A stretch of 64,000 nucleotides of DNA from an uncultured Gammaproteobacteria bacterium (GCA_964560005.1 CAZLKB010000003.1:40712-104711), one strand, 5' to 3'; shown: positions 10,153 to 56,963, counted from the first letter of the stretch. Notes: generated from the letters alone by a model not told the origin. Made by a program: numbers and translations.

Positions 10153-10226
10153 TAAAATTATGCGGCCTCGTCTATCAAGACATTAAACTAGTTGTTATTA
10201 ATTGAAAATTGATAATTGAAAATTAT

Positions 10227-12983
10227 TTATAGCTCTCTCCCCCGCTTGACGCTGATCTTGGCTTCGCCGTCTATTACCACCGTATCCCTTCTCTTAATGC
10301 CGTCTTTTAAAACTATATTGGCTATTTCGTTTTCAATTTTTTCTTGAAGCAGGCGCCTGAGCGGGCGGGCGCCGAATTTCGGGTCAAACCCCAGAGCGGC
10401 TAATTTCTTAATTCCGGTTTCTTCATATTCCAGGCCGATGCCCTTGGCTTCCAATAATCGGGATACTTTTTTTAACATCAATTTAGTAATGCTTTCCACA
10501 TCCCCGAGGCTCAAGGGTTTAAATACTATAACGCCGTCAAAACGGTTAATCAATTCCGGCCTGATAAATTTATTTAATTGATCATTAACCAAGGACTCTT
10601 TAATTTGTTCAAGCGGAGTTCCCTTCTTGATTTCGTCCTGAATATAGACCGCGCCGATATTGGAGGTGGCGATTATAATACTAGAGGTAAAATCAATTGT
10701 CCGCCCCTGCCCGTCGGTCAGCCGGCCGTCGTCCATTACCTGCAAAAATAAATTCAATATATCAGGATGGGCTTTTTCTATTTCATCCAATAAAATGAGG
10801 CAAAACGGCGCTTTACGCACGGCTTCGGTTAAATAGCCTAAAATACCGTCCGGCGAACCGATCATTTTTTCTAGAGATTCCGGCCGTTGATACTCGCTCA
10901 TATCCAGCCTAACCATATAGTTCTCATTGCCGAAATAAACTTCCGCTACCGTCTTGGCTAATTCGGTCTTACCCACTCCGGTCGGCCCCAGAAAAAGAAA
11001 ATTGGCTATCGGCCTCTTGGTTTCCCTTAACTCGGTTCTGGCTCGCCTTAGACTGGCCGCGACCATAGCGACGGCTTCTACCTGGCCAACCATCCGTTTA
11101 TGCATATTCTCTTCTAAATCCAGCAAAGCTCCACTCTCCTTCTCCGTAATTTTAGTCAAAGGAATTTTAGTCTTCCGGCTAATGACGCTCGCTACATCTT
11201 CGGCGTCAACTATGCTATTTACGCCTTTATTCGTTGATACTTCAACCGCGATTGATTCCAAAACATCAACCGCTTTGGCCGGTAAAAATTTATCGTGAAT
11301 ATATTTAGCGGTTAATTCCACGGCTTTAGCAATACTGTCATAAGTGAAATAGACTTTATATTTTGCTTCATAAAAACCGATCTTGCTTTCAATCATCTGA
11401 ATGGCTAAATTCATATCAGGCTCGCTGACTTCAACTTTGGCCATGGCGTCGCCCAGCGGCTTATTTTCAACATATTTGGCATAATTTTTTTCACTGACCG
11501 AGGCTAAGCAAATAAATTCGCGGCGGCTTAAGGCATTGGATAAAACTTCAGATAATTCCAGGCTTTCTTCCTGGCCCGCGGTAATACCCATTAAATTTTC
11601 AATATTGCTAATATATAAAATAATATTTCTCGCCCGCGCCACTTCGTCAATAATAACCAAGAGCCTTTCTTCGGCTTTGGCTGGAGTCGCTCCGCTTAAG
11701 AGCCGGGGAATATCCAATTCCAGCAATCTTTTGTCTTTCAGGATTTTCGGCACATCTTCTTCCACCATCGCCCGCGCCACCTGACCGATGATCATATCTT
11801 TGCCTGCGCCGTTCGGACCGTAAAGCAATACTCCGCTTCTGCCGCTTTCCAAGTTTTGAAAAATCGCCTGGACTTCTCTCTCCCTGCCGACGCATAACTC
11901 CAACCTGCCCCATTTGGCGGCCAAGGTTAAGTCGTAAGAAAAGTGATTTAAAATCGGCGTAGCCACGGCGGTATAAGCTCGGTCCATTGAGCTGGCGGGC
12001 TTAAACCGGGAAGCTCGGCGATAAAGCCGGTAATTTTCCACCAATCGCTCGCTGATAACAAACCACTGAATGACATTATTAATTTTATCCCGGTCAATGC
12101 CCAGATCATAAAGTATTTCAGTTAAATTCTGATCGCGTTTAAGGCAGGGCAAGATGAAATTAATCGGATCTACTTTCTTTTGGCCTAAAGCCTCGGCATT
12201 AATATAGCTTTCCAGGAAAATCTCTTTTAATTCCAAAGATAAGCCGGTAGAATCGGCGCCGGCTTCCAAAGATAATAGCTGATTTTTTAACTTGCTGATC
12301 AATTTATCCGGATCGGCGTTAAGGCGTGAAAATAGGGCGGCCGCCGAATTATCTCTTAAGAGGCAAAAAAATAAATGAATCGGCTTAATCTCGCGGTGCT
12401 TGGCAAAATTCGCCAAAAGAAAAGCCTGCTCTACGACTTTAAACGCGCTCAAGCTAAAACCGTTTGATACTTCAATTTTGTATTTTCCCTTGCTGCTTCT
12501 AAACTCCAGCCAGTTATTAGGCGTTAGGTTCTCAATAGCCTCTCCATATTTAATTTTTTTTATTTTTTTCTTAGACGCTTCCTCCTCGCTTAAACGATAG
12601 ATGACAAACATGTCGGCGATTAAACTCACCCAAAATATAAGAATAAAAATACTTTTAACGCGCCAAAAGGCCAAAACGGTAAAATCGCCGGTATTCAAGC
12701 TGGCTAAATAAACCCAATAAGCTAAAGCCAGTAAACCGCATAAACCGGCGGCATAAGCCAATAAATTAACCACCAGGTGCAAGCTGGTTTTTAAATGCCT
12801 TAATTTTATAATCGGACGGCTTAACTCTAAATTGCTAAAATAAAATCTATTTTGATAATAAGCGATTAAGCCGTGGCCAAAACAATTTTTACATATCAGG
12901 CCGTGATCCAATACGCCGGCGCTGTTGCAAGCGGAGCAGGTGATGAATTGAATTGAATTTTTATTTATATCTTGTTTAGGCAT
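10227..12983 (-). CDS. ClpC/ClpB-like AAA+ chaperone with N-terminal zinc ribbon and transmembrane segments; first ATPase domain degenerate
   Basis: N-terminus CSACNSAGV...CKNCFGHG plus two hydrophobic helices. Clp N-domain repeats follow. NBD1 has Walker A GPNGAGKD and no DE in Walker B (IILYISNIENL). NBD2 is canonical (GPTGVGKTELAK; LILLDEIEKAHPD). The C-terminal D2-small domain is present. Confidence 0.85.
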   Translation of the reverse strand: MPKQDINKNSIQFITCSACNSAGVLDHGLICKNCFGHGLIAYYQNRFYFSNLELSRPIIKLRHLKTSLHLVVNLLAYAAGLCGLLALAYWVYLASLNTGDFTVLAFWRVKSIFILIFWVSLIADMFVIYRLSEEEASKKKIKKIKYGEAIENLTPNNWLEFRSSKGKYKIEVSNGFSLSAFKVVEQAFLLANFAKHREIKPIHLFFCLLRDNSAAALFSRLNADPDKLISKLKNQLLSLEAGADSTGLSLELKEIFLESYINAEALGQKKVDPINFILPCLKRDQNLTEILYDLGIDRDKINNVIQWFVISERLVENYRLYRRASRFKPASSMDRAYTAVATPILNHFSYDLTLAAKWGRLELCVGREREVQAIFQNLESGRSGVLLYGPNGAGKDMIIGQVARAMVEEDVPKILKDKRLLELDIPRLLSGATPAKAEERLLVIIDEVARARNIILYISNIENLMGITAGQEESLELSEVLSNALSRREFICLASVSEKNYAKYVENKPLGDAMAKVEVSEPDMNLAIQMIESKIGFYEAKYKVYFTYDSIAKAVELTAKYIHDKFLPAKAVDVLESIAVEVSTNKGVNSIVDAEDVASVISRKTKIPLTKITEKESGALLDLEENMHKRMVGQVEAVAMVAASLRRARTELRETKRPIANFLFLGPTGVGKTELAKTVAEVYFGNENYMVRLDMSEYQRPESLEKMIGSPDGILGYLTEAVRKAPFCLILLDEIEKAHPDILNLFLQVMDDGRLTDGQGRTIDFTSSIIIATSNIGAVYIQDEIKKGTPLEQIKESLVNDQLNKFIRPELINRFDGVIVFKPLSLGDVESITKLMLKKVSRLLEAKGIGLEYEETGIKKLAALGFDPKFGARPLRRLLQEKIENEIANIVLKDGIKRRDTVVIDGEAKISVKRGREL

Positions 12984-12984
12984 T

Positions 12985-13350
12985 TTAAATTAAAAGTTGA
13001 ATAGTTATTTCATAAATAACCAAGACCGGCAACAAAACCCAAAAACAGATCGCTAAAAACGCCAGGCTAAACCAAACCAGCATAACCAGGCTTCTAAAAA
13101 TGATCTGGCCTAAACGGACAAAAAAGCTGATCAGCATCCCCTGCCAATCATATTGAGCGTACATCGGCTTAAAAATATTTTTTATCCAAACCAACAGCGC
13201 CAAAGCTTTTTGCTGGTTTATCAAAAAATTTCTTACTCCCAAAATAAATTTGACCAAGCCGCGCGAATACCACCAAACCGGGAAATAAATTATATCCCTG
13301 AATAATTCAACAATAATTTGACCGGCGTAAAAAATAAAACTATTAGACAT
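12985..13350 (-). CDS. Hypothetical integral membrane protein (121 aa), operonic with the Clp-like ATPase
   Basis: Three or four hydrophobic helices. Its stop abuts the start of the Clp-like gene. Confidence 0.5.
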   Translation of the reverse strand: MSNSFIFYAGQIIVELFRDIIYFPVWWYSRGLVKFILGVRNFLINQQKALALLVWIKNIFKPMYAQYDWQGMLISFFVRLGQIIFRSLVMLVWFSLAFLAICFWVLLPVLVIYEITIQLLI

Positions 13351-13518
13351 AAAAAATTTAAAATTTAAAAATCAAAGTTAAAAATGACAATGTAAAATTT
13401 AAAAAATTATTATATTCAAACATTTTGCATTTTTAACTGTCATTTTGCATTTTGAGATTTTAACTTTACAATTTTATTATACCATATTCCCCTTTTTTGC
13501 ACCAAGCGCCGGCGAGCC

Positions 13519-14576: not shown

Positions 14577-14996
14577 ATGAAAAAAATATTAACTAAAGTG
14601 AAACTGCAAATCCCGGCCGGCCAAGCCAATCCCGCTCCTCCGGTAGGACCGGCCTTAGGCCAGCACGGCTTGAATATCTCGCAATTCTGCCAGGCATTTA
14701 ATGAAAAAACCAAGGCTAAAATGGGCGATATCACACCGGTAGAAATAACCATCTACGAAGACCGAACTTACACATTTATTTTAAAGACCCCGCCGGCCGC
14801 GGAATTAATCAAAAAATACGCTAAAATTCCTAAAGGTTCGGGCAAGCCGCTGGCCGAAAAAGTCGGTAGTATTACTAAAGCTCAACTGAAAGAAATTGCT
14901 GAAATCAAAATGCCGGACCTGAATGCGCATGATATTGAAGCGGCTATGAGAATCGTCGCCGGCACCGCACGGCAAATGGGAGTGGAGATTAAGTAG
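14577..14996 (+). CDS. rplK: 50S ribosomal protein L11
   Basis: [26 protein letters not shown] matches the bL11 signature. Confidence 0.95.
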
Positions 14997-15118
14997 TTGA
15001 AAATTAAAAAATCAAAATGTAAAATTACAGTTTAAAATGCAAAGTTTAAATTTATAAATTTTAAATTTTACATTGTCATTTTTAACTTTAATTTTTGCAT
15101 TTTACATTAATAACTAAT
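14997..15118. repeat. Family A palindromic AT-rich intergenic element (aaaatgtaaaat/gacaatg type) between rplK and rplA
   Basis: aaaatcaaaatgtaaaattacagtttaaaatgcaaag...aaattttacattgtcatttttaactttaatttttgcattttacatt has imperfect inverted symmetry. One of at least seven copies in the window. Confidence 0.7.
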
Positions 15119-25452: not shown

Positions 25453-25971
25453 ATGGCCGACCTAAAAAATCCGCATCTCACCAGGCTTAGCTGGGATGAA
25501 ACTTTCATGAACTTGGCGCTTTTAATCGCGCAAAGAACCGCTTGCCGCTTCCACATTGTCGGCGCAGTTTTCGTTGATGATAACAATCGGATAATTTCCC
25601 TGGGCTACAACGGTCCGTCCGAAGGCGATTACCACTGCAACGAAGTCGGCTGCGCTAAAATTGACGGCAATCCGGTGACGAAAAAAATAGAACGCTGCCG
25701 CGGCGTGCACGCGGAAATTAACGGGATTATCAATTCGCAAAATACCAGCCGCCTAAAAGGCGGCGCACTTTACACCACGGTTCTCCCCTGCTACGACTGC
25801 ATGAAAGCTATAAATAACGCCGGTATTAAAGAGGTCGTCTACAAGGAAGTCTATAAGCGCATCCAGACCGGTGGAGAAAAATTTGAGGAAGAACGCGAAG
25901 TTTGGAACTTGGCGGAAAAACGCGGCATAAAAATTAGGAAGTATGAAGGAAAGGTATATTTAAAAATTTAA
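25453..25971 (+). CDS. dCMP deaminase (ComEB-like cytidine/deoxycytidylate deaminase)
   Basis: Zinc-binding HAEINGI ... PCYDCMKAI motifs. Confidence 0.85.
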   Translation: MADLKNPHLTRLSWDETFMNLALLIAQRTACRFHIVGAVFVDDNNRIISLGYNGPSEGDYHCNEVGCAKIDGNPVTKKIERCRGVHAEINGIINSQNTSRLKGGALYTTVLPCYDCMKAINNAGIKEVVYKEVYKRIQTGGEKFEEEREVWNLAEKRGIKIRKYEGKVYLKI

Positions 25972-26083
25972 AATGTAAATCTCAAAATGTAAAATAACAA
26001 TGCAAAGTGTAAAATTACTTCTTAAGACATTTTGCATTTTAAACTGTCATTTTCAATTTTGATTTTTACATTTTACATTATCT
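25962..26083. repeat. Family A palindromic AT-rich intergenic element
   Basis: aaaatgtaaatctcaaaatgtaaaataacaatgcaaagtgtaaaatt...cattttgcattttaaactgtcattttcaattttgatttttacattttacatt. Confidence 0.7.
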
Positions 26084-26632
26084 ATGATTCTCGGCATTAA
26101 AAAACTCCACGAACTGGTTAAAGAAATAAAGCTGGTAGAAAACCTCTGCGACCGGGAAATGAATAATCCCGAAGGCGCGGGCTTTGATTTACGCTTAGGC
26201 GAGGTCTATGAACTTTCCGGCAACGGATTTTTAGGCGTGGAAGAGCGAGATACGCCCAAAATTAATTTAGCGGCAAAACACGATCCGGCCAAAACGGAAG
26301 CGGATAACTTTTTCATTTTTAAACCCGGCAAGTATTACTTGATTAAAACCATGGAAAAGGTCAATCTGCCCACCACCCTATCCGGCATAATCTTTCCTCG
26401 CACTACCATGTTCCGCTCCGGACTCGGTTTATTTAACGGCGTCGTCCAGCCCGGCTATAAAGGTGAATTGACTTTCGGCTTAGCTAATCTGGGCCAAAGC
26501 GACATAAAAATATCCTTCGGCGCCCGCGTCGTGCATATCACTTTTCATGAAGTTCTCGGCCAAGGCAACCAATACCGCGGCCAATGGCAAGGCGGACGAG
26601 TGGCGACAGAGGGCAAGGAAACGCAAGTGTAA
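26084..26632 (+). CDS. dcd: dCTP deaminase / dUTPase-superfamily protein
   Basis: Beta-barrel dUTPase-like motifs ([14 protein letters not shown]; [37 protein letters not shown]). Its length and N-terminus fit Dcd. Confidence 0.65.
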
Positions 26633-26643
26633 CAATAAAACCT

Positions 26644-27645
26644 ATGAACCAAAATCATCCCGAATACCAATATTTAAATTTACTTAAAGACATAAAAGAT
26701 AACGGTTCGGATAAAAAATTATTTTTTACTCCGGAAGTTATGGCTGATTACGCGAAAAAAGGGCAAGAGCCGCCTATTATTAGATCGGTTTTCGGCCGAC
26801 AGATCCGCTTCAACCTCAAAGATGGGTTTCCCCTATTGACCACGAAAAAAGTTTTTATCAGAGGTATAATTATTGAACTGCTTTGGTTTTTACGCGGCGA
26901 TACCAATGTTAAATTTTTAGTTGATCATAACGTCCATATTTGGGACGATTGGGCCTGGAAAAGATACCATAAACATTGCCTGCAAAATGAGCCGGAGAAG
27001 GATCTGACCCAAGAACAGTTTATCGCTAAAATAAAAGAACTGCCGGCCACAGACCAATTTGTTAAAAACTGGGGCGACTTAATTAGCGTTTACGGACGAA
27101 TGTGGCGCAAGTGGCCGGCTTCTGACGGACGAGAAATTGATCAATTGGGCTGGTGCATCCAAGGATTAAAAGACAAACCGTTCCGGAAATCTTATGTGGT
27201 TTCCGCCTGGAACCCGGATTTTATTTATGCTATGGCCTCAAAAGGCAATGCCAATGAAGTGCCGCCGTTTTGCCATACCACTTACCAATTTCAAGTTACC
27301 GGCAATGGCGTTTTGAATTTAGGTCTTTATCAGAGAAGCGCAGACGTATTTTTAGGAGTTCCATTTAATATCGCTAGCTATTCCCTTCTTCTCTTAATGG
27401 TGGCGCAAATTACGGGATTAAAGCCTGGCGAATTCGTTCACACTTTCGGCGATGTGCATATTTACTCAAATCATTTTGACGCGGTCAATGAACAGTTGAG
27501 CCGTGAACCTAAGCCTTTTCCAACTATGAAATTAAACCCGGCTATAAAAAATATTGATGATTTTAAATATGAAGATTTTACTTTAGAGGGCTATGACCCG
27601 CGCCCGGCCATTAAGGCCGAGATCGCCAATATCGGGGGCTTTTAA
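26644..27645 (+). CDS. thyA: Thymidylate synthase ThyA
   Basis: [42 protein letters not shown] plus the catalytic-region [12 protein letters not shown]. The start is taken at [11 protein letters not shown]; the ORF-track start at 26584 overlaps dcd. Confidence 0.95.
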
Positions 27646-27710
27646 TAACTAATAATTAAAAATTTAATCATTCATTGAAAATTGAGAATTGAATATTGAA
27701 AATTAATTTT

Positions 27711-28193
27711 ATGATTTCCATTATTTGCATCATCGCCAAAAATCGCGCCATCGGCTTTAAAAATAAGTTGCTTTACGATATTCCCGAAGATATGAAGCAC
27801 TTCAGGGAAATTACCAGCGGGCACACGGTCATAATGGGCGAAAAAACATTTCATTCCATGAACGACCGCCCTCTACCCAAACGAGTTAACATCATTTTAA
27901 CTTTGGATAAAAATTTTAGCGCGCCGAATTGCTTGGTCGCTCACTCCTTGGAAGAATCCGTTGAATTGGCCAAATCGCAAAACGATAACGAAATTTTCTT
28001 TATCGGCGGCGGCCAGATTTATAAATTGGCCTTGCCTTTGGCTGATAAATTATATCTGACCATTGTTGACGACGAGCCGAAAGAAGCCGACACTTTTTTC
28101 CCTGATTATTCTGAATTTAAAAAAGTTATATCGGAAAAAACCATGGACACGGCTAGCGGTCATAAAATAACTTTTACGGAATTAACTAGATAA
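27711..28193 (+). CDS. folA: Dihydrofolate reductase
   Basis: MISIICIIAKNRAIGFKNKLLYDIPEDMKHFREIT.. and GGGQIYKLALPLADKLYLT. It follows thyA. Confidence 0.9.
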   Translation: MISIICIIAKNRAIGFKNKLLYDIPEDMKHFREITSGHTVIMGEKTFHSMNDRPLPKRVNIILTLDKNFSAPNCLVAHSLEESVELAKSQNDNEIFFIGGGQIYKLALPLADKLYLTIVDDEPKEADTFFPDYSEFKKVISEKTMDTASGHKITFTELTR

Positions 28194-35673: not shown

Positions 35674-35675
35674 AA

Positions 35676-35790
35676 AAATTAAAAATGTAAAATGTAAATC
35701 TCAAAATGACAATGTAAAATTTAAAATTATTAAATTAATAAATTTACATTTTGAACTGTCATTTTTCATTTTGATTTTTACATTTTACAT
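35676..35790. repeat. Family A palindromic AT-rich intergenic element between miaB and dnaJ
   Basis: aaaatgtaaaatgtaaatctcaaaatgacaatgtaaaatttaaaatt...tttacattttgaactgtcatttttcattttgatttttacattttacattt. Confidence 0.7.
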
Positions 35791-35794
35791 TTTT

Positions 35795-36883
35795 TTATAT
35801 TCCCAACTCCCTCAGCATTTCTTTTTGCTTTCTTGACAAACTGGTCGGAATTTTAACGATTATTTCCACTAAGTGATCGCCCCTGGAACTGCTATGTATA
35901 TGCGGCACGCCCTTGCCTTTAAGCCGAATCACTCGGCCCGATTGCGTGCCTTCGGCGATTTTTAATTCCACCGGACCGTCAACCGTTTCCACATCAATTT
36001 TTCCGCCTAAAGCCGCCAGCGCTATATTAATTTCAGCTTTTGATAAAATATCAAAGCCGTCACGCGCGAATCTTCTATCCGGATTGACCCTAACCTTTAC
36101 ATATAGATCTCCAGCCTGGCCGCCCTTGGCTACGGCTTCGCCTTGCCCGGCGAATCTTAAAGTTTCTTCATTGTCAATTCCGGCCGGAATCTTAATTTTT
36201 AAAACGGCTATCTCGTGGATTACGCCCGAGCCTCGGCATTGTTTGCATTTTTCTTTAATAATTTTACCTTCACCGTGGCAGGCGGTACAAGTAGTTTGCA
36301 CCTGCACATTACCTAAAATTGTTCTCTGCATTTTAGTCACCCTGCCCGTACCGCGGCAGGTTGGGCAGGTCTCCGCACCAATGCCGGGTTCGGCGCCCGA
36401 GCCCTTGCACCTAGAGCAACTGACGGCTTTTTTTAAACTAATTTCCCGCTCTACGCCGAAAATCGCCTCTTTAAAATCAATATTTAGGATTACTTCGATG
36501 TCTCGTCCGCGGCTTGCCCGCCGCCGCCCTGATCGGCCACCTTCACCAAAACCAAAAATATCGCCAAAGCCGCCGAAAATATCGCCCAGGTCGTCCATGT
36601 TGATGTTAAAGCCCTGGCCACTGTCAAAACCGCTGAAACCGGAAAAGCCTCCGCCCCCGCCTGACCGCGCCTGTTCAAAAGTTTGGCCATATTGGTCATA
36701 TTGGGATCGTTTCGCGGAGTCGCTTAAAACCTGATAAGCCTCATTCAGCTCCTTAAACTTGGCTTCGTCGCCGCCCTTTTTATCCGGGTGGCACTCGTGA
36801 GCTTTTTTCCGAAAAGCCTTTTTGATTTCATCTTGATTAGCACCCTTACTCACGCCGAGAATATTGTAGTAGTCTTTGGACAT
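35795..36883 (-). CDS. dnaJ: Chaperone DnaJ
   Basis: J domain with HPD (KAHECHPDK), G/F-rich region and four CxxCxGxG zinc-finger repeats. Confidence 0.95.
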   Translation of the reverse strand: MSKDYYNILGVSKGANQDEIKKAFRKKAHECHPDKKGGDEAKFKELNEAYQVLSDSAKRSQYDQYGQTFEQARSGGGGGFSGFSGFDSGQGFNINMDDLGDIFGGFGDIFGFGEGGRSGRRRASRGRDIEVILNIDFKEAIFGVEREISLKKAVSCSRCKGSGAEPGIGAETCPTCRGTGRVTKMQRTILGNVQVQTTCTACHGEGKIIKEKCKQCRGSGVIHEIAVLKIKIPAGIDNEETLRFAGQGEAVAKGGQAGDLYVKVRVNPDRRFARDGFDILSKAEINIALAALGGKIDVETVDGPVELKIAEGTQSGRVIRLKGKGVPHIHSSSRGDHLVEIIVKIPTSLSRKQKEMLRELGI

Positions 36884-37200: not shown

Positions 37201-37809
37201 CTATTTACTTCTTTTCCGTAAACTCCCCTTCAATCGGTCCTTGATCCTTTTTCTTATTTCTTCAGTAAATACTCGCTTGGAGATTTCAGTATAAAATTTA
37301 TTATTTTTGATTCTAAAATCGCACATTGATGCCCGGCCGGCTTTATAATATTTTAAATCGGCTTCAAACTGTTCCTTGAAAGAATCGGATAAAGCATCGG
37401 CATCAATTAAAATTCTTTTATTTATCTCTCTAGGGTTAGTGAATTTATGCGCCTTTATTATCTCGGCAACTTTCTTAATTTTTCTCGGTTCATAATTAAG
37501 TTCGCGCAAAACTTTAGCCGCGATTATGGCTGAATATTTAAGATGCAATTTTAACGCCTTAATTCTATCTTTTTTGTCTTGGCTTTTCTGCAACTTCTTA
37601 GAAACCTTGCTCCAGCCGATGTCATGTAAAATTGCCGCCGGTATAAGCAGACTTTCGTCGCCTATGCCAGACTTAATTATTATTTCCATGGCCTTAACCA
37701 CGCCCTTAACATGCGTAAGATCTTTTTCTCTTCCGGCTTTTATGTAAGGCAGAGCTAATTTCCAGATTTTTTGGTATTGTTTGTCCATTTTTTTATTTAG
37801 TCGCGACAA
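37201..37809 (-). CDS. HD-domain phosphohydrolase
   Basis: H...HD motif (LLIPAAILHDIGWSK). The C-terminal 15 codons are encoded by a 44-bp copy of the dnaK 3' end read in another frame. Confidence 0.75.
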   Translation of the reverse strand: MSRLNKKMDKQYQKIWKLALPYIKAGREKDLTHVKGVVKAMEIIIKSGIGDESLLIPAAILHDIGWSKVSKKLQKSQDKKDRIKALKLHLKYSAIIAAKVLRELNYEPRKIKKVAEIIKAHKFTNPREINKRILIDADALSDSFKEQFEADLKYYKAGRASMCDFRIKNNKFYTEISKRVFTEEIRKRIKDRLKGSLRKRSK

Positions 37810-38603: not shown

Positions 38604-40568
38604 TTATTTCTTTTCCGTAAACTCCCCTTCAATCGGCCCTTGATCTTTTTTCTGTTCGCCTGCTCCTGACCCGGGTTGCGCGCCGGCATTCGCCTGTTCT
38701 GATCCTGGTATAGGTCCGGTACTTTGCGCTCCTTGGGCGGATTGCGCCGACTGATACATAGCCGCGCCGATCTTTTGCGCCGTAGTATTTAATTCTTCCA
38801 TCTTCTTTTTTATCTCATCAAACTTATCGCTATCTTTTACCTTCTTTAAGGCCTCAACTTTTTCTTCCAATTCTTTCTTATCTTCAGGCTTAACCTTATC
38901 TCCAGCCTCTTTCAGCATTTTTTCCGTTTGGAAAATTACGGCCTCGGCCTGATTTTTGATTTCCACCTGTTCTTTTTTCTTTTTGTCTTCCTCGGCGTGC
39001 AGTTCGGCTTCCTTTTTCATTTTTTCCACTTCTTCTTTAGATAAACCGGAAGAAGCGGTAATGGTAATTTTTTGCTCCCTGCTCGTAGCCTTATCTTTGG
39101 CTTTAACATTTAAGATGCCGTTGGCGTCAATATCAAAAGAGACTTCCACTTGCGGAATGCCGCGAGGCGCCGAGGGTATGCCGTCCAAAATAAATCTGCC
39201 CAAAGTCTTATTATCCCCGGCCATCGGCCGCTCGCCCTGTAAGACATGGATTTCCACGCTGGTCTGACCGTCGGCCGCAGTGGAGAAAACTTGCGACTTT
39301 GAAGTCGGGATCGTGGTATTTCGTTCAATTAAAGGCGTGGCCACGCCGCCCAGAGTTTCAATGCCCAGAGTTAAAGGAGTTACATCTAATAGTAAAACAT
39401 CTTTAACATCGCCCTGGAGAACCCCGGCTTGCACGGCCGCGCCTAAGGCCACGACCTCGTCAGGATTGACAGTCAAATTCGGCTCCTTGCCGAAAAATTC
39501 TTTAACCGTCTTTAAGACTAAGGGCATGCGGGTCATGCCGCCGACCATGAGTACTTCCTCTATATCTTTTACATCAACGCCAGCGTCTTTAAGCGCGGCT
39601 CTAACCGGAGCGATGGTCGCGGCCACTAAGTCGCCGGTCAGCTCTTCTAATTTCGCTCTGGTCATCTTCATGACTAAGTGTAAGGGCCGGCCGCTCGGGT
39701 CAACCGTAATAAACGGCTGATTGATTTCGGTTTCCGGCATAGTGGATAACTCAATCTTTGCTTTTTCCGCCGCTTCTTTTATTCTTTGGAGAGACAAGGG
39801 GTCTTTAGATAAGTCTGCGCCTTGATCTTTCTTAAACTGTTCAATAATCCATTTAATTATCCTTTGATCAAAATCGTCGCCGCCTAAGTGCGTATCGCCG
39901 TTCGTAGATTTAACTTCTACCGTGTCCGAACTGACATCCAAAATGGAAATATCAAAGGTTCCGCCGCCTAAATCGTAAACCGCGATTTGCTGACCCTTCT
40001 TCTTTTCAAAGCCGTAAGCTAGCGCGGCTGCGGTCGGCTCGTTTATGATTCTTTTTACATCTAAGCCGGCAATGCGCCCAGCGTCCTTGGTCGCTTGCCT
40101 CTGCGCGTCATTAAAATAGGCTGGTACGGTTATGATCGCTTCGGTGATTTTCTCGCCGATCTTGGCTTCAGCGTCGGCTTTCAACTTGGCCAGTATCATG
40201 GCCGAAATTTCCTGCGGCGTGTATTCTTTCGCCTGCCCAGAGCCTGCCGAAGGGCCGATTTTCACTTTAACGCCGCCATTAGCTTTAATAATTTTATACG
40301 GCATAACTTTCAAATCGCGCTGGACTTCTTCATCTTCAAAACTGCGGCCGATTAACCGTTTAATAGAAAAGATAGTGTTTTCCGGATTGGTTACGGCTTG
40401 GCGCTTGGCCGACATGCCGACCAATCGTTCGCCGTTTTTCGTAATCGCGACAATAGAGGGCGTGGTTCTCATGCCTTCAATGTTTTCAATGATTTTCGGT
40501 TGTCCGCCTTCGATTATCGCCATGGCGCTGTTGGTAGTGCCTAAATCAATACCTAATATCTTACTCAT
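38604..40568 (-). CDS. dnaK: Chaperone DnaK (Hsp70)
   Basis: [18 protein letters not shown], the EEVD-less C-terminus and full-length Hsp70 architecture. Confidence 0.97.
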
Positions 40569-40971: not shown

Positions 40972-41020
40972 AAAGCTATAAATTAATTCGTAATTCTTAA
41001 TTCGTAATTGGTAATTAATT

Positions 41021-41452: not shown

Positions 41453-41510
41453 ATATTTGTTCTCCTTCCCCGCTCAAACTATATTCCAAAGCTTGAGCGA
41501 TAATTATATT

Positions 41511-41660
41511 ATAATTTAAAATGTAAATCTCAAAATGTAAAATGACAGTTGAAAATGCAAAATGTCTAAATTAATAATTTTAAACTTTACATTGTCATTG
41601 CTCTGCAATGACCCCGCATCTGCGGGGTGCTAGCGGAGCTAGCATTTTACATTTTGATTT
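41511..41660. repeat. Family A palindromic element carrying an inserted GC-rich hairpin, between grpE and hsp20
   Basis: aaaatgtaaatctcaaaatgtaaaatgacagttgaaaatgcaaaatg...actttacattgtcatt plus ctctgcaatgaccccgcatctgcggggtgctagcggagctagc. Confidence 0.65.
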
Positions 41661-41661
41661 T

Positions 41662-42525
41662 TTAACTTTTCATTTTATAAACTACCACCTTGGCCGCTTC
41701 TATCACCTTGCCATTAAGCTTATACCCGGCCTTCATCTCGCGAGCCACTTTGCCATCCAATTTTTTATCATCCGTTTCTTCGTTCTGTATGGCTTCCATG
41801 GTATTATGATCAAATTTTTCTTCCGCGGTTTTAATTTCCGTTACCCCGATTTTTTCCAAAACATCCTTAAATTGCTTAACCACATGCTTAACGCCGGTTA
41901 GCCATTCGTCCGCCGACTCATTATTATGATGTTCAATAGCCATCTTTAAATGATCGTAAACCGGTAAAATTTCTTTTAGCATTATTTCATTGGCAAACAT
42001 GGCGAACTCCATTTTTTCCTTAGCCGTCTGCTTCATTAAATTCTGATAATCAGCCAAAGCGCGCTTATATAGCCCCTCGTGATCGTTCTCTCTGGCTGTA
42101 ATAAATTTTTCCACGCTGACTCTGGTGTAAGGGTTTAATTCTAATTCTTTTAGAGCTGTCTCCGGCTTAATCCATTTATATTCTTCCATCTCCCTATTCT
42201 TCTCGGCCATCTTTCCGCCGGCCAGATGGGCGCTATAATCCAAAAAAACAAAATGAACTTTTCTTTCAAATTCTTTTGGATAAACGCAGTCCTGCAGGTC
42301 GTTAAATTTTATATTATCAATTTCCAAGCCGGTTTCTTCTCTAATTTCCCGCTTTAAAGCTTGCTCGCAGGTTTCACCTAATTCAACATGGCCGCCCGGA
42401 ATCTGCCAGTATGCTCCCCACTTTGAAGATTTGGTTAATAAAATTTCGTCCTGATTATTATAAATTATCGCCGCCACTACGGTTTCCGGATATTTTTTAT
42501 CGCTCTTTTTTATTTCTTCCGCCAT
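41662..42525 (-). CDS. grpE: Nudix hydrolase domain fused to nucleotide exchange factor GrpE
   Basis: N-terminal Nudix box (GGHVELGETCEQALKREIREETGL, residues 44-67). C-terminal GrpE helical pair and beta domain (PVYDHLKMAIEHH...FDHNTMEAIQ...GYKLNGKVIEAAKVVVYK). Position between hrcA and dnaK. Confidence 0.8.
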   Translation of the reverse strand: MAEEIKKSDKKYPETVVAAIIYNNQDEILLTKSSKWGAYWQIPGGHVELGETCEQALKREIREETGLEIDNIKFNDLQDCVYPKEFERKVHFVFLDYSAHLAGGKMAEKNREMEEYKWIKPETALKELELNPYTRVSVEKFITARENDHEGLYKRALADYQNLMKQTAKEKMEFAMFANEIMLKEILPVYDHLKMAIEHHNNESADEWLTGVKHVVKQFKDVLEKIGVTEIKTAEEKFDHNTMEAIQNEETDDKKLDGKVAREMKAGYKLNGKVIEAAKVVVYKMKS

Positions 42526-49793: not shown

Positions 49794-50927
49794 TTATTCC
49801 AACATTTTCAAAATAATTCTTACCATATCCCGGTTCGCTCCTTCCTTTATCACCCGCCCCATCTTTTCTCCCAGCTTTTTCTGCAAGTCTTTATTATTAA
49901 TCAAATTTTTTATCTCCGTAACAAATATTTCAGAGGTTAAGTCTTTCTGTTCTAACACTATGGCCGCGCCTTTAAACATAGCCGCATTCTCTTCCTGGTG
50001 CGACTCCGGCATGGGGATAATTATGGCCGGCTTTTTTAAATATGACAATTCGGATAAAACTCCCAGCCCGGCGCGCGTCACGACTACTTCGGCTAATTTA
50101 AGCGCCTTTGCCATTTGCTCCGTTTCTAAAAATTCGTATTGCGCGTAATTTTTTATCTCTAATCTCTCATCTCTACTCTCCTTACCTTTTCCTGTAACAT
50201 GAATAATCTGGCAAATCTTGGTCAACTCCCCAAAGCTCTGTTCCACTAACCGGTTAATTGCCATCGCTCCTGTTCCCCCGCCAACGATTAAGACAACGGG
50301 CAAACTTTTGTCTATTTTATTAAATTGAAAATTGAAAATTGAAAATTGAAAATTTTTCCTAATGGGGTTTCCGGTCCAAACCGCTTTTTTGCCGTAGTCA
50401 CGCATTGATTTTTCAAAAGTTACGGTTATAATCTTAGCAAAAGGCGCCATTAATTTATTGGCCAAGCCTGGCCGGACATCTTGCTGATGGATTAAAACCG
50501 GTACGCGCAAAAGCCAGGCCGCCCAAACCACCGGCACACTGACGAAACTACCCGCGCTCATCACCATGTCCGGCCGCCACTTTAGCATTATGAAAAGAGC
50601 TTGAAAAAAACCTAGTTTAATTTTAAAAATATCCACTAAATTATTTAAAGAAAAATACCGGCGCCATTTTCCGCCGCTAATCGCCTTGAATTTTATTCCT
50701 TCTTTTTCCACCATTACTTTCTCCACTCCGAATTTAGTGCCCAGCCATAAAAATTCGTAACCCCCCGCGCCCTCTCTTCTGCCCCCTTGATAAAGAGCCT
50801 GTCCCGCACTTGATGCGGGAGGGTTAGGGGGATTTTTCATTTCATCATAAATAGCCAAGAGCGGCGCCACCGACCCACCCGTACCGCCTCCGGAAAAAAG
50901 AATTTTGTAAGTTTTTTCATTATTCAT
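49794..50927 (-). CDS. murG: UDP-GlcNAc:lipid I GlcNAc transferase MurG with two repeat-encoded segments
   Basis: GGTGGSVAPLLA N-terminus, GT28 N and C domains. The PPNPPASSAGQALYQGGRREGAGG insertion (GC-rich element 50761-50835) and the NFQFSIFNFQF interdomain linker ((AATTTTC)n, 50324-50355) are both in frame. Confidence 0.9.
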   Translation of the reverse strand: MNNEKTYKILFSGGGTGGSVAPLLAIYDEMKNPPNPPASSAGQALYQGGRREGAGGYEFLWLGTKFGVEKVMVEKEGIKFKAISGGKWRRYFSLNNLVDIFKIKLGFFQALFIMLKWRPDMVMSAGSFVSVPVVWAAWLLRVPVLIHQQDVRPGLANKLMAPFAKIITVTFEKSMRDYGKKAVWTGNPIRKNFQFSIFNFQFNKIDKSLPVVLIVGGGTGAMAINRLVEQSFGELTKICQIIHVTGKGKESRDERLEIKNYAQYEFLETEQMAKALKLAEVVVTRAGLGVLSELSYLKKPAIIIPMPESHQEENAAMFKGAAIVLEQKDLTSEIFVTEIKNLINNKDLQKKLGEKMGRVIKEGANRDMVRIILKMLE

Positions 50928-50937
50928 AATTCATGTT

Positions 50938-52107
50938 TCATGACTTCATCTGCTTACTAATATTCGCCAATATTCCGATAGAGGCTAGGGCTGCCAGCAT
51001 GGCCGATCCGCCGTAGCTGACCATCGGGAGCGGCACGCCGGTCATAGGCATAATATTAACCATGCCGCCGATATTTATCAAGGCTTGGATTGTGATCCAA
51101 GAAACAATGCCCACAGCTAAAATCTTGCCGAAATCGTCAGGCGCTCGTTTAGCGATAATCACGCCTCTGGAAAACAATGCCAAAAATAATAAAATTAAGC
51201 CGGTAGAAAAAATAAAACCGGTCTCCTCGCTGATAATTGGAAAAATGGCGTCGTTCTGCGCCTGCGGCAGGTAGGAAAATTTTTGTCTGGAAGCGCCCAG
51301 TCCCCGGCCCCAAAAACCGCCGGAACCGACCGCGATCAAGGATTGATTAACTTGATAACAAATTTCTTGTTTGGAAAAAGACGGATTCAGCATACATTTA
51401 AACCGGTTGGCCTGATAAGGGTAAATATTGGTCATGATGGTTAACCCGGCCAATCCCAATAAAATCAAAGCTACCAAGTGCTTGATACTGCCGCCGCCGA
51501 TAAAATAAACTATCAGCGACGCCAAGGCGATTATTGTCAATGTTCCCATATCCGGCTGAAGTATCATCAACAGAGCGATTACACCTAAAATAACCACGAA
51601 CGGGCCGATGCCTTCAGAAAAATCGGCTAATTTCTTTTTCCTGCCCTCCAGCCAGGCGGCCAGATAAATTAAAAAGGTTATTTTTACAAATTCGGACGGC
51701 TGTAAAGAATAGCCGAAAACATTTATCCAGCTTCGGGAAGTCCCCCAGGTACCGGCGAGCCCGGGGATGAAAACTAAAAGAAGCAGACCGATTGAAGCGA
51801 CCAGCATCAACAGCCCGTATTTTTGCCAAAAATGATAATCAACTTTTGAAAAAAACCAAAAGGCGCAAAGACCCAATATCAAGCCGAAGAGCTGATGTTT
51901 TACCAAGTAATAACTATCGTCATAGGTATTATAGGCTATAACCGACGAAGCGCTAGAAAGCATAATGATGCCGAAAACAATAATAACTCCGACGATAACC
52001 AGCAGTTTTTTATCCGATTCGCCGTATTTATCGCTGGAACTTAATATTCTTTTAAACCAATTAATCGCCGATGTCATATCAAAAAATGTAAAATATAAAT
52101 TTCGCAT
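50938..52107 (-). CDS. ftsW: SEDS family peptidoglycan glycosyltransferase FtsW/RodA
   Basis: Ten-TM SEDS pattern with the conserved PQAQNDAIFPIISEETGF and MPMTGVPLPMVSYGGS motifs. Position between mraY and murG. Confidence 0.85.
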   Translation of the reverse strand: MRNLYFTFFDMTSAINWFKRILSSSDKYGESDKKLLVIVGVIIVFGIIMLSSASSVIAYNTYDDSYYLVKHQLFGLILGLCAFWFFSKVDYHFWQKYGLLMLVASIGLLLLVFIPGLAGTWGTSRSWINVFGYSLQPSEFVKITFLIYLAAWLEGRKKKLADFSEGIGPFVVILGVIALLMILQPDMGTLTIIALASLIVYFIGGGSIKHLVALILLGLAGLTIMTNIYPYQANRFKCMLNPSFSKQEICYQVNQSLIAVGSGGFWGRGLGASRQKFSYLPQAQNDAIFPIISEETGFIFSTGLILLFLALFSRGVIIAKRAPDDFGKILAVGIVSWITIQALINIGGMVNIMPMTGVPLPMVSYGGSAMLAALASIGILANISKQMKS

Positions 52108-52243
52108 TAATTTTCAAATCACAATTTCCAATTTTCAATGAATTTACAATGATTAAATTTTCAAACGAAAAAATTTTTCATTGTAAATTAATCCATTGAA
52201 ATTTCATTGAAAATTGGCGCTTGAAAATTGAAAATTATTCTAT

Positions 52244-53812: not shown

Positions 53813-53881
53813 GCTTATAATTTAGCACACTTTTCTCATAATTCGCAACCGGCCGCGCTCTTTCCATAAAAAGATAGATTA

Positions 53882-53890
53882 TGGTATAAT
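53882..53890 (+). promoter_or_regulatory. Extended -10 promoter element (TGGTATAAT) upstream of pilB
   Basis: tggtataat sits 31 nt upstream of the pilB ATG. Confidence 0.5.
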
Positions 53891-53921
53891 AAAAACAGTT
53901 ATAATTATAACCAATCATGCC

Positions 53922-55643
53922 ATGCTATCAAACGAACAGCTAAAAAAAATTCTGGCGCACGCCGAGATAATGCCGGCGGCGACTTTTGAAAAATTTATTA
54001 AAGAAGCGCGGCAAAACGGAAAAAAAGTAGAAAACTACCTGATTGAGAAAAAAATCATTACCTCCAACTCATTATACGAAAATGCGGCGAATTTTCTAAA
54101 AGTGCCGTTTATTGATTTGAAAAATTTAACCATCAGAAAAGATATTCTGTTCAATATCCCCGAGCCGATCGCCTCAACGCAGCAGATAATCGCTTTCGCG
54201 GCCGATGACAAGGAAATTAAAATCGCTTGCTTAGACCCGGAAAATATTGAAATTTTTGAATTCATTAAGAAAAAAACCAATCTTGAGCCGAAAATATATT
54301 TAACCACCCCGGAAAGCTTTGACGAGGCTCTGAAACAATATCATAAAAGCCTAAAAGCTGAATTTAAAGATCTGGCCAGCGAAAATCTTGACACTTCGGA
54401 CGCTAATCTTAAAAAATTAGCCGAAAATCTGCCGATTGTCAGAATCGTTGATACGCTTTTAGAATACGCGATTTTTGAAAACGCCAGCGATATCCATATT
54501 GAACCTGAAGAAAAAGACATTCTGGCCCGCTATCGGATTGACGGGATTTTAAAAACCGTGATGACTCTGCCTAAAAATGTTCAGCCGGGCATTATCGCCA
54601 GAATTAAAATACTGGCCAACCTTAAAGTTGATGAGCATCGCCTGCCGCAAGACGGACGTTTTAAAATCAACGCTAAAGATTACAAGGTGTCATTCAGGGT
54701 TTCTATCATCCCGACTTTTGACGGAGAAAAAATTGTCATGCGCTTATTGAACGAAAAAGCTCAAATATTAACCTTGGAACAGCTCGGCTTCCAGCCCTCA
54801 ACCTTGGACTCAATAAAAAGAAATATTACAAAGCCGCATGGCATGATTTTAGTTACCGGGCCGACCGGCTCCGGCAAAACGACCACTCTTTATACCATCC
54901 TGAATATCTTAAATACGCCGGAAGTCAACATCATCACCATTGAAGATCCGATTGAATACCGCATGCCGCATGTAAACCAATCTCAAGTTAATCCTAAAAT
55001 CGGCTATACTTTCGCCACCGGACTGAGAGCCTTTCTAAGGCAGGATCCCAATATTATTATGGTTGGGGAAATCCGCGATCAAGAAACCGCGGAAATCGCC
55101 GTTCATGCCGCTATGACCGGCCACTTAGTGCTGTCATCACTACATACCAACGACGCTGTAACTACTTTGCCCAGGCTTAGCGATATGGGCATACCCGCTT
55201 TCTTAGTGGCTTCAACAACCAATGTTATAATCGCTCAAAGATTGGTTAGAAAAATCTGCCCCAATTGCATCCAAAGCTATAAATTAGACAAGCAAGTCAT
55301 AGAAGAGCTGAAAAAGCAGCTTGACTTAGTTAATATAATGCAAACGATGGAAAAAAAGAAAATCATCACCGACGCCAAGCGCGGAATTGAATCATTGTTA
55401 TTTTATCGCGGCATCGGCTGCAAGCAATGTTCCAACTCCGGTTATAAAGGCAGAATCGGCATCTATGAGGCCTTGGAAATCACTGATGAACTGTCAGAAC
55501 TGATTTTAAGAAAATCGACGCCTTCGGAACTAAAAAAACAAGCGGAAAAACAAGGCATGCTGACCATTGTGGAAGACGGCTTCATTAAGGCGAAAAACGG
55601 CATTACTACAATTGAGGAGATTATGAGAGTAACCAAGGAATAA
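53922..55643 (+). CDS. pilB: Type IV pilus assembly ATPase PilB (GspE family)
   Basis: N-terminal GSPII_E_N domain, Walker A VTGPTGSGKTTTLY, Asp and His boxes, and a C-terminal tetracysteine motif (CPNC...CKQC). Confidence 0.9.
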   Translation: MLSNEQLKKILAHAEIMPAATFEKFIKEARQNGKKVENYLIEKKIITSNSLYENAANFLKVPFIDLKNLTIRKDILFNIPEPIASTQQIIAFAADDKEIKIACLDPENIEIFEFIKKKTNLEPKIYLTTPESFDEALKQYHKSLKAEFKDLASENLDTSDANLKKLAENLPIVRIVDTLLEYAIFENASDIHIEPEEKDILARYRIDGILKTVMTLPKNVQPGIIARIKILANLKVDEHRLPQDGRFKINAKDYKVSFRVSIIPTFDGEKIVMRLLNEKAQILTLEQLGFQPSTLDSIKRNITKPHGMILVTGPTGSGKTTTLYTILNILNTPEVNIITIEDPIEYRMPHVNQSQVNPKIGYTFATGLRAFLRQDPNIIMVGEIRDQETAEIAVHAAMTGHLVLSSLHTNDAVTTLPRLSDMGIPAFLVASTTNVIIAQRLVRKICPNCIQSYKLDKQVIEELKKQLDLVNIMQTMEKKKIITDAKRGIESLLFYRGIGCKQCSNSGYKGRIGIYEALEITDELSELILRKSTPSELKKQAEKQGMLTIVEDGFIKAKNGITTIEEIMRVTKE

Positions 55644-55772
55644 ATTTTTAATTTCTAATTTTTAATTTTTAAACAATGATTTAATGTCTAAATTTTCAAA
55701 CAAAAATTATAAAGTGTTTTTAATTTTAAAAATTAAAAAATTGAAAATTGTTTGAAAATTAGAAATTGAAAA

Positions 55773-56963
55773 TTGAAAATTGTTTATAAAAATATGCCTG
55801 TAAATTTACCCAAACAACAAAGTTCAGCGCAATCCGACGAGCGGGCGGCCGGTACAGAAAAAACCGAAACCAAGGCGGCGGGTGAAAATATGATAAGCAG
55901 AATTAATGATTTCTTGGCGAAATTTTCCAATATCCCTATTTCCGAAAAATTATTTTTCGTCCAATATTTGGGAATAATGCTAAAAGCCGGTATTTCTTTA
56001 TCGGCCGCCTTAAAAACCTTGGCGCGACAGACTAAAAACAGAAAATTTGCTAAAATCATAGATAATATTTCAAAAAATGTAGAAAGGGGCGTAAGCTTTA
56101 CTGACAGTTTAAGGCCGTATGAAAAAATCTTCGGACAATTATTTATAAATATGATTGAATCCGGCGAAATTTCCGGCAAACTGGAAGAAGTCTTAAAAAA
56201 ACTATACATCCAATTTAAAAAAAATCATGAATTAGTTTCAAAGGTTAAGGGCGCTTTAACTTATCCGGTTGTCATACTTATAGCCATGTGCGGCATAGGA
56301 ATTTTTATGATGATAGTCGTAGTGCCGAAAATTACCGCCATGTTTCAAGATTTTAACGCCGAGCTGCCCCTGCCAACCAAACTATTAATAAAATTTTCCG
56401 ATAGCTTGGTCTCTCACGGCTTGCTTTATTTAATCGGCGCGGTCGTCTTCGTCTTAATTTTCGTGCAATTGATAAAAACCGCCAAAGGCAAACATATTTT
56501 TCATGCTGTTTTATTAAAATTGCCGATTTTCGGACAAATTATTAAAAAAATAAACTTAGCGCGTTTCGCCAGAACCATCAGCTCTTTATTGAAAACCGAT
56601 ATAATGATCATTAAAAGTTTTCAAATTACCGGGCAGGTTCTGGGTAATATCCAGTATCGCGATGCTTTATTGGACATGAGCAACAAGATAAAAAAGGGTG
56701 GCACCATCAGCGAAATAATTTCCAAATACCCAAAGCTCTTCCCGCCGGTTGTCGTGCAAATGATAGCCGTGGGCGAAGATACCGGCGAGCTTGACTATGT
56801 GCTGGAAGAACTAGCTGAATTTTACGAAGAAGAAATCGACCAAACCATGAATAATTTGCCCGCCATAATCGAGCCGGTGCTGATTTTAACCCTTGGCTTG
56901 GTCGTCGGCGGCATGGCAGTGGCGATTATTATGCCAATGTACTCTTTAACTTCAGCAATTTAA
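55773..56963 (+). CDS. pilC: Type IV pilus inner-membrane platform protein PilC (GspF family)
   Basis: Duplicated GspF domains (LGIMLKAGISLSAAL...; KYPKLFPPVVVQMIAVGEDTGELD) and three TM helices. Confidence 0.85.
   Translation: MKIVYKNMPVNLPKQQSSAQSDERAAGTEKTETKAAGENMISRINDFLAKFSNIPISEKLFFVQYLGIMLKAGISLSAALKTLARQTKNRKFAKIIDNISKNVERGVSFTDSLRPYEKIFGQLFINMIESGEISGKLEEVLKKLYIQFKKNHELVSKVKGALTYPVVILIAMCGIGIFMMIVVVPKITAMFQDFNAELPLPTKLLIKFSDSLVSHGLLYLIGAVVFVLIFVQLIKTAKGKHIFHAVLLKLPIFGQIIKKINLARFARTISSLLKTDIMIIKSFQITGQVLGNIQYRDALLDMSNKIKKGGTISEIISKYPKLFPPVVVQMIAVGEDTGELDYVLEELAEFYEEEIDQTMNNLPAIIEPVLILTLGLVVGGMAVAIIMPMYSLTSAI

Follow-up and report, generated by a model that had tools for sequence, protein, structure and literature searches.

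Tandem heptamers are described as the commonest class of long simple-sequence repeats (SSRs) in prokaryotes, and a polymerase-footprint model of slippage has been proposed for their origin (Mrazek 2007, as summarised in PMC4679880 and PMC4692102). In the accounts given there, the long simple-sequence repeats (LSSRs) and the short tandemly repeated repetitive (STRR) sequences of the cyanobacteria Calothrix and Nostoc consist of a few to about ten tandem heptamers, make 7 nt the prevailing period of long SSRs, are scattered through the genome, lie mostly in non-coding DNA and vary in copy number (PMC4679880; PMC4692102). Here we analyse a stretch of 64,000 nucleotides (GCA_964560005.1, CAZLKB010000003.1:40712-104711; the window hereafter, with positions counted from its first nucleotide), in which such tracts of the unit GAAAATT, AATTTTC on the opposite strand, occur at six sites, two of them inside the genes miaB and murG. 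The tracts share the tandem organisation, period, dispersal and mostly non-coding location listed above, and variable copy number is seen in relatives. Unlike LSSRs and STRRs, however, arrays are found mid-gene in essential proteins at orthologous linker sites, with a unit that varies by species, overwrite the linker and belong to a host that is a tiny uncultured member of the candidate phyla radiation (CPR). Our favoured explanation, which we consider probable though far from secure, is that the (GAAAATT)n tracts are heptanucleotide SSRs of the LSSR/STRR kind, made by slippage and tolerated in a few flexible coding loops.

Two further heptamer families come close in their organisation. The TAACTGA repeats of marine Beggiatoaceae, cyanobacteria and Bacteroidetes are present as two to six direct copies, many of them just upstream of start codons, with one orientation carrying stop codons in all frames, coding copies only in the other orientation and few copies within open reading frames (ORFs), at peripheral positions including one in a MurG; for the repeats upstream of start codons a genome-specific nucleic-acid-binding protein has been proposed (PMC4679880). 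Equally, tandem GAAAATT contains a TGA stop while AATTTTC is open in all frames, and two of the six arrays, in the spacers preceding folA and pilC, end 6 and 12 nt before the start codon. The unit here is GAAAATT, and unlike the single TAACTGA unit found across phyla many units are used by relatives, with in-ORF copies constituting internal linkers that recur in orthologues. The GGGAATC repeats of Xanthomonas and the GGGGAYT repeats of Nostoc are similarly dispersed heptamers with a preference for about four copies, poor in coding DNA and close to gene ends (PMC4692102). Unlike these G-quadruplex repeats, the units considered here are AT-rich with no G-quadruplex possible, and some intergenic ones pair into long hairpins.

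All six GAAAATT/AATTTTC sites that the first-pass annotation had reported were recovered at the same positions by pattern count and by Tandem Repeats Finder (TRF), by which the tandem arrays of the window were called, and each consists of at least three head-to-tail 7-nt copies. The two-unit probe GAAAATTGAAAATT has 14 matches with at most one mismatch in the window compared with 0.5 expected, a number attained by 0 of 100 dinucleotide-preserving shuffles, and in a lag test 12 lag-7 tracts were detected against zero to two for each other lag from 3 to 12. The arrays, the two host ORFs and related tracts are as follows, with copy number and percentage match as given by TRF.

34384-35673, minus strand: miaB ORF, 429 amino acids, intact.
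35314-35371, minus strand: heptamer array in miaB, GAAAATT on the plus strand and AATTTTC in coding sense; perfect at 35341-35371 (4.4 copies, 100% match) and continued back to 35314 by an older degenerate stretch of 14-nt period (35314-35343); encodes EIFNFQFSIFNEFSKINFQ.
49794-50927, minus strand: murG ORF, 377 amino acids, intact.
50317-50358, minus strand: heptamer array in murG, perfect at 50322-50354 (4.7 copies, 100% match); encodes KNFQFSIFNFQFN, the first part of the GT28_N/GT28_C linker.
50153-50180, minus strand: second period-7 tract in murG with a GAGAGAT-like unit in coding sense, encoding approximately ESRDERLEIK at about residues 249-258; a second clade-wide hot spot.
50913-50943, minus strand: period-7 tract of the CATGAAA/TATGAAT type over the ftsW stop and murG start codons; in orthologues, arrays also cluster at the N-terminus.
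10200-10224, plus strand: degenerate (GAAAATT)3.6 array (88% match), unstructured, starting 3 nt past the stop codon of a Clp-type AAA+ ATPase gene (10227-12983, minus strand).
27673-27704, plus strand: degenerate (GAAAATT)4.4 array in the thyA/folA spacer (27674-27704, 83% match), unstructured, its end 6 nt upstream of the folA ATG at 27711.
40982-41019, minus strand: unrelated heptamer array, (AATTACG)n in coding sense, which makes up the entire spacer between a 123-amino-acid ORF and hsp20.
52108-52237, minus strand: AU-rich long hairpin occupying the whole mraY/ftsW spacer, with arms of about 64 nt each that are 77% complementary; contains the tract 52206-52236 (4.4 copies, 66% match).
55643-55782, plus strand: AU-rich long hairpin occupying the whole pilB/pilC spacer; its 3' arm is the GAAAATT tract 55737-55782 (7 copies, 71% match), ending 12 nt upstream of the pilC ATG at 55794.

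The peptides encoded by the repeats, IFNFQFSIFNEFSKINFQ in MiaB and KNFQFSIFNFQFNK in MurG, are in frame as had been proposed, and their location at interdomain linkers is borne out by the Pfam domain limits. In MiaB the array lies between UPF0004 (residues 4-85) and Radical_SAM (143-311), in MurG between the end of GT28_N at residue 166 and the beginning of GT28_C at residue 211, which puts the tracts mid-gene, at about residue 101 of 429 and about residue 190 of 377, respectively. Because both ORFs are intact, we infer that the arrays are translated into a low-complexity linker with a 7-amino-acid period. That the repeat is read in the same phase in both genes, as the first-pass annotation had pointed out, is uninformative, since the three frames of (AATTTTC)3, NFQFSIF, IFNFQFS and FSIFNFQ, are cyclic permutations of one another. 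The AlphaFold model of the window MurG has a mean predicted local distance difference test score (pLDDT) of 83.8 and a predicted template modelling score of 0.82; pLDDT falls below 50 at residues 39-54 and 249-255 and averages 57 over the block 191-200. These regions coincide with internal hot spots of arrays among orthologues, with an additional short dip at residues 90-92 outside of them. Pentatricopeptide-repeat matches to MurG residues 3-55 in a PDB search were discarded as low-complexity noise, with no single stretch above threshold. Programmed frameshifting was equally rejected, given that the ORFs run without interruption and AATTTTC does not conform to an X XXY YYZ slippery site.

MurG and MiaB have their closest counterparts in Candidatus Falkowbacteria and other Patescibacteria metagenome-assembled genomes, the best non-self homologues being 68% (MurG) and 65% (MiaB) identical. 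Judged from these proteins, the host is a Falkowbacteria-like member of the CPR/Patescibacteria without a close sequenced relative in the collections. Orthologous loci were compared at the level of the clade, for murG in 80 loci of GTDB species representatives plus the window (1.22 Mb in total, 81 murG genes). A tblastn search for miaB in the 80 murG loci found none; miaB was instead taken from an independent metagenome scan, in which 67 orthologues were compared at the linker. As it was the window that drew attention to the two genes, their status as hot spots confirms a prediction and is not an unbiased discovery.

Across about 150 related Patescibacteria loci, heptamer arrays are located at the murG and miaB linkers with various units (AAATCCC, GACGACA, CTCGCAA, AATTACG and more). 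All 30 aligned MurG orthologues have a variable peptide at the linker, and many of these peptides, such as ITNYELRI, LATRNSQLAT, IPNPKSQIP and RVTHSAQRVT, resemble translated heptamers. A period-7 tract of at least 18 nt is present at the linker in 17 of the 81 murG genes, with decayed forms in others; units include (AAATCCC)4.6 in L007, (GACAGAC)4.7 in L025, (TCAGATT)5 in L023, CTCGCAA in 24-nt super-units in L017, ATTATGA/ATTACGA in L038, AACGCGT/AACGCAC in L013, AAATTAC in L001 and (CAATTTT)4.7 in L014. At the miaB linker, an array of at least 19 nt occurs in about 22 of the 67 orthologues with at least 11 different units (AAAATTC, AAATTGG, AAATTTT, AATTTCC, AATTTTC, CCAATAT, AACATCA, GAATTAT, ACAAATC, AATTACG and CAAATGA), and the AATTACG unit that fills a spacer in the window (40982-41019) also fills murG and miaB linkers of other species. 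The preference for seven nucleotides is clade-wide: with a cut-off of at least three copies and at least 85% match, 99 period-7 arrays were counted in the 1.22 Mb, against 23 of period 6 and 18 of period 8. Within MurG the arrays concentrate at residues 1-10, 33-57, 189-204 and 246-265 (window numbering), and the window murG itself has further period-7 tracts at two of these hot spots (50913-50943 and 50153-50180). The most extreme case is the murG of L014 (3646-4824) with four separate heptamer arrays of three units, AATTAGG, CGTTATG (twice) and CAATTTT.

The linker had been suspected to be lineage-specific. It is not unique to this genome, as relatives with FQFSIF-type linkers exist (L014 for murG; L090, L093, L095 and L096 for miaB), all of which carry the DNA repeat; unrelated lineages have ordinary linkers, such that an FQFSIF linker devoid of the DNA repeat was not encountered in them. 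A single ancient insertion followed by plain inheritance is not supported, as array presence on a neighbour-joining tree of MurG with the linker masked requires 12 changes for 17 positive taxa. Permutation on the same tree gives a mean of 15.6 changes (p=0.007), which indicates weak clustering.

The tracts replace linker-coding DNA rather than add to the linker, because linker lengths equal those of array-free orthologues and solved structures. The median MurG linker measures 20 amino acids with an array (n=11) and 20 without (n=64), and MiaB linkers have 22-31 amino acids with an array compared with 24-25 in the native form, which reads "LPIxDLPKLxxKLGLK" in array-free orthologues. Equally, the window MurG linker aligns to the solved MurG structures 7d1i and 3s2u without extra residues, and the MiaB array region to the solved MiaB 7mjz almost gap-free. 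Array-bearing MurG linkers retain the C-terminal half of the native motif (...K.GL/FNLK.D), with the N-terminal half composed of repeat-encoded residues. The proposal that the in-gene tracts are fixed in-frame insertions of a mobile element thus does not stand, as there is no net gain in length and, at the in-gene arrays, neither element ends nor target duplications nor a hairpin came to light (fold z about 0-1). Consistently, traits of elements inserting into genes are missing from the in-gene arrays, which add no residues and have no palindrome, terminal inverted repeats or fixed consensus such as a miniature inverted-repeat transposable element (MITE) would have. Rickettsia palindromic elements, which Ogata and colleagues are said to have described in 2000, reportedly occur in frame in protein genes as palindromes of approximately 100-150 bp that add residues. 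Like them, the arrays are repetitive DNA translated, by prediction, in housekeeping proteins at tolerant surface positions; unlike them, they are tandem 7-mers, non-palindromic, of no net length and without fixed sequence.

A different situation is seen at MurG residues 31-55 (50756-50835, minus strand), where a true insertion of about 22 residues into the N-domain compared with solved structures, NPPNPPASSAGQALYQGGRREGAGG, is encoded by GC-rich hairpin-like DNA (CCCGCATCAAGTGCGGG; CTCTTTATCAAGGGGG). Orthologues have related segments at this site ("PLYQGG / PFVKGG / SPQPSPWQGEG"), and within one 90% cluster strains vary in presence, absence or type of the segment. It thus resembles a small translated repeat of another class than the heptamers. 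Furthermore, GC-rich segments of about 20-60 nt are nested within heptamer arrays of relatives, as at the murG linker of L004 (2899-2982) and L031 (810-935) and at the MiaB linker of the proteins P0227 and P0259; one such example is composed of AATTTCCAATTTC, TCCGCCTCGGCTTGGCTTCGGCGAGACGGG and CAATTTCC in this order. These nested segments recall the small dispersed repeats that, as Elhai and colleagues are said to have reported in 2008, insert into cyanobacterial heptamer arrays.

Change between close strains can be followed in relatives. Within protein clusters built at 90% identity, differences are found mainly at the hot spots, which in ten such MurG clusters contain most of the large variable blocks. 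The murG of L081 is 98-99% identical at the protein level to that of L082 and L083 and differs from it in length solely by an indel of exactly 42 nt within the linker array, equal to three copies of the 14-nt double unit TTCGGATGTCGGAT, i.e. six units, with the frame kept. This example agrees with the expectation that a 7-nt unit preserves the frame only if copies change in multiples of three. In L086, a 32-nt deletion in a second miaB array (L086 1514-2831 compared with L087 1514-2863) is the only difference from L087 over 5.2 kb. The resulting frameshift breaks miaB within the radical-SAM region, leaving two ORFs of 223 and 218 amino acids. Finally, the murG alleles of L084 and L085, which are about 99% identical, are wholly different at nucleotides 590-653, where an AAATCCC-type array plus a small GC hairpin in one allele is exchanged for (AATTATC)n in the other. 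The other length variants seen between alleles are all in frame, the one miaB allele being the only frameshifted one, and a single ORF was recovered for 81 of 81 murG genes and one ORF spanning both conserved motifs in 79 of 81 miaB loci. The array site persists, and arrays come and go.

As an explanation of these data, slipped-strand mispairing in replication with a 7-nt preference would create, expand, contract and homogenise arrays. These are common in non-coding DNA, where some pair into long hairpins, and survive in coding DNA only where the peptide is structurally irrelevant, the orientation stop-free and the total length frame-keeping. At such sites the array takes the place of native linker sequence at equal length and is presumably translated. 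Hot-spot sites are kept from species to species and arrays turn over faster than point substitutions, to judge from relatives only, by copy steps such as the 42-nt one, by whole-array replacement and by decay followed by rebirth; steps out of frame do happen and break the gene, as in the split miaB, which makes the array a liability and not a switch. With slippage, the perfection of the tandem copies, the mutated-unit gradients, the 42- and 32-nt steps and the frame hazard would be accounted for, and with selection the restriction of coding copies to flexible loops, stop-free orientation and frame-keeping lengths. Tandem copies, a period-7 excess and depletion from coding DNA with the exception of murG are indeed shared with heptamer SSRs, and in relatives the copy number differs between close strains (L081 versus L082/L083, L086 versus L087). 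Under a crude coding mask (stop-to-stop ORFs of at least 120 amino acids in six frames), there are 3.29 arrays per 10 kb of non-ORF DNA, 4.06 per 10 kb of murG and 0.23 per 10 kb of the remaining ORF-covered DNA. From these patterns we infer slippage and conversion as the mechanism; ectopic conversion or template switching between arrays of one genome probably supplements slippage, an unproven addition that would explain unit sharing and the array swaps.

Several points weigh against this explanation. Slippage adds or removes units and thus on its own leaves the constant linker length unexplained, and equally the L084/L085 swap of unrelated arrays. The density in murG is 18 times that of other ORF-covered DNA and equal to that of non-coding DNA, an excess for which permissive loops alone seem too weak. 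Within a genome, 13.3% of same-locus array pairs have one and the same unit, counting any rotation and either strand, compared with 1.6% of pairs between loci of different genomes, an approximately 8-fold excess (permutation p<0.0005) that holds for pairs more than 300 nt apart. Some units, AACGCAT and AAAATTG (four loci each) and AATTACG (three), are also found in distant genomes. Furthermore, translation of the tracts is deduced from reading frames, and the strain-level evidence comes from relatives only, the window MurG and MiaB being single-member clusters. Unit sharing implies some exchange between loci or a genome-specific bias, and all four points, the constant length, the swap, the murG excess and the sharing, suggest copying between arrays or strong site-specific effects.

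The exchange of arrays could also be the primary process. Mobile or cassette-like arrays would then spread as copies from one locus to another, whether through ectopic gene conversion, through template switching or through an element-specific enzyme, and be pasted over permissive sites, a reading that we consider unlikely though worth keeping in view. It would suit the 8-fold excess of unit sharing, exemplified by GAAAATT in miaB, murG and four spacers of the 64 kb, the linker swap between murG alleles with arrays lacking any trace of homology, and the length-neutral overwriting, which fits replacement better than growth. In addition, TTCATTGAAAATTG is common to 27669, 35338 and 52204, and the miaB tract and that preceding pilC share 81% identity over 58 nt (family D2). 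Composition alone, however, predicts likeness among low-complexity tracts, and the part shared by the six GAAAATT sites is the 7-mer alone. The in-gene arrays showed no conserved termini, inverted repeats or target duplications at their borders and no transposase or reverse transcriptase linked to them. Three or four different units in one gene (the window murG, L014) and gradients of mutated units typical of in-place evolution (L013, L011, L038, L001) likewise speak against this reading. A related proposal, to which we give slightly less credence still, is that a dedicated process in Falkowbacteria-like Patescibacteria repeatedly rewrites fixed sites, including the MurG and MiaB linkers, with fresh heptamer arrays. 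A replisome or primase step whose footprint is 7 nt would be one candidate for such a process, templated copying from array to array another, and, if it exists, core genes would hold position-conserved, sequence-fluid "cassettes", an undescribed mode of linker evolution with possibly a role in expression or folding.

An improbable alternative is a functional cis-element, a DNA or RNA binding or pausing site that serves, for example, ribosome pausing at domain boundaries or is recognised by a genome-specific nucleic-acid-binding protein. A domain-boundary position that is kept across many species with free sequence, the murG excess over other coding DNA, the enrichment of units within genomes and the arrays shortly before the folA and pilC start codons, reminiscent of TAACTGA repeats (PMC4679880), would be in line with such a role. 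Different units stand side by side in one gene and genome, however, 64 of 81 murG and about 45 of 67 miaB genes have the site without an array, and presence is scattered on the MurG tree. The in-gene tracts in miaB and murG are without RNA structure (fold z 0.0 and 0.9), and no binding protein emerged as a candidate. For both in-gene tracts and the arrays at 10201 and 27671, folding (z 0.0 to 1.0) led us to reject a function as hairpin or terminator.

In the SSR contingency loci of Haemophilus and Neisseria, a repeat whose unit is not divisible by three resides close to the 5' end of an ORF that belongs to a surface or restriction-modification gene; copies are many, and ON/OFF switching has been observed (PMC2651432; PMC5953494). 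That one- or two-unit slippage toggles MiaB or MurG in a subpopulation in the same manner is very improbable. A 7-nt unit within two ORFs does shift the frame upon unit change, and the 32-nt deletion that splits miaB on otherwise identical 5.2 kb is a natural allele of this type. Unlike contingency loci, however, the hosts are essential, with murG a single-copy cell-wall gene required for peptidoglycan lipid II synthesis and miaB a housekeeping tRNA-modification gene and neither dispensable nor environment-facing, the tracts lie mid-gene at four to five copies, and the genes are nearly always in frame, with frame-keeping indels between murG alleles. The suggestion of phase-variable tracts thus fits as a mutational hazard and hardly as a switch, given single-copy housekeeping hosts that are intact in nearly all of the approximately 150 orthologues. 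An assembly or sequencing artefact has a negligible probability: short-read assemblers can miscount tandem repeats and the 32-nt frameshift allele could be such an error, but the arrays of 31-58 nt are below read and k-mer length, essential ORFs stay in frame and about 150 independent assemblies, produced by many studies, carry equivalent arrays at these sites.

Heptamer SSRs have long been noticed, are unexplained and have been regarded as essentially non-coding; here they would be routinely translated as linkers of essential enzymes in a CPR clade. A literature search on heptamer or tandem repeats in CPR/Patescibacteria gave no relevant report. Relative to the literature found, the CPR host, the routine residence in linkers of essential enzymes, the conserved site with free unit, the length-neutral overwriting and the strain-level swaps are new. 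Many independent arrays at known sites in abundant metagenome data provide a tractable system in which to measure how fast, in what steps and with which strand bias 7-nt slippage proceeds, and such a natural system could address why the period is seven. On a practical level, hypervariable segments of low complexity that stem from DNA repeats are embedded in CPR protein alignments, phylogenies and structure predictions, and in the case of split genes or strain differences at array sites the repeats should be checked before adaptive changes or pseudogenes are called.

With respect to strand, all six arrays show GAAAATT on the plus strand regardless of gene direction, and in five of the six the most perfect units are at the right-hand end, the exception being 27674-27704. 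GC skew is negative throughout the window. Array growth is possibly tied to replication direction, a weak indication from six sites only (p about 0.03).

The neighbouring genes thyA, folA, ftsW, mraY, pilB (T2SSE) and pilC (T2SSF) are supported by Pfam as named in the first-pass annotation. Its grouping of the six tracts into one family does not hold, since those at 52108-52237 and 55643-55782 are arms of hairpins and thus other objects. The hairpin of the mraY/ftsW spacer has a minimum free energy of -41.7 kcal/mol (z -6.4), with the GAAAATT tract 52206-52236 in one arm and AATTTTC copies (52109-52136) in the other, and that of the pilB/pilC spacer has a z of -5.5. In the relatives L052, L018, L001 and L047, mraY/ftsW spacers have hairpins of heptamers with other units, an anecdotal observation from a crude extraction with many zero lengths that was not used quantitatively. 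Both window hairpins are similar to a larger palindrome family, whose members are about 130 nt long, have an internal period of 7 nt and occupy at least seven other spacers (4367-4496, 6619-6739, 13338-13478, 14992-15114, 25953-26086, 35669-35803 and 41505-41680). The family is AT-rich (AAAATGT ... ACATTTT), and most members span spacers of co-directional genes from the stop to the next start codon; the one at 35665-35805 forms a hairpin of about 60 bp (z -5.3). Rfam applied to the whole window identified two tRNAs only, such that neither the arrays and hairpins nor the palindrome family match an RNA family. The palindromes may serve as hairpins for processing, termination or stabilisation; alternatively, they might be MITE-like elements.

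Elsewhere in the window, a 50-nt direct repeat that is 94% identical is present at 37205-37254 and 38604-38653. It constitutes the dnaK 3' end and recurs, read in a different frame, where an HD-domain ORF ends. Both copies flank about 1.4 kb with a methyltransferase gene and the HD gene, which suggests an insertion with target duplication. Equally, thyA (26584-27645) encodes 353 amino acids and, because the Pfam model of 266 positions stretches over residues 29-348, the predicted ThyA must hold approximately 55 extra residues. TRF detects a 15-nt repeat at 27549-27580 near the 3' end of thyA, and ThyA may contain further repeat-derived segments.

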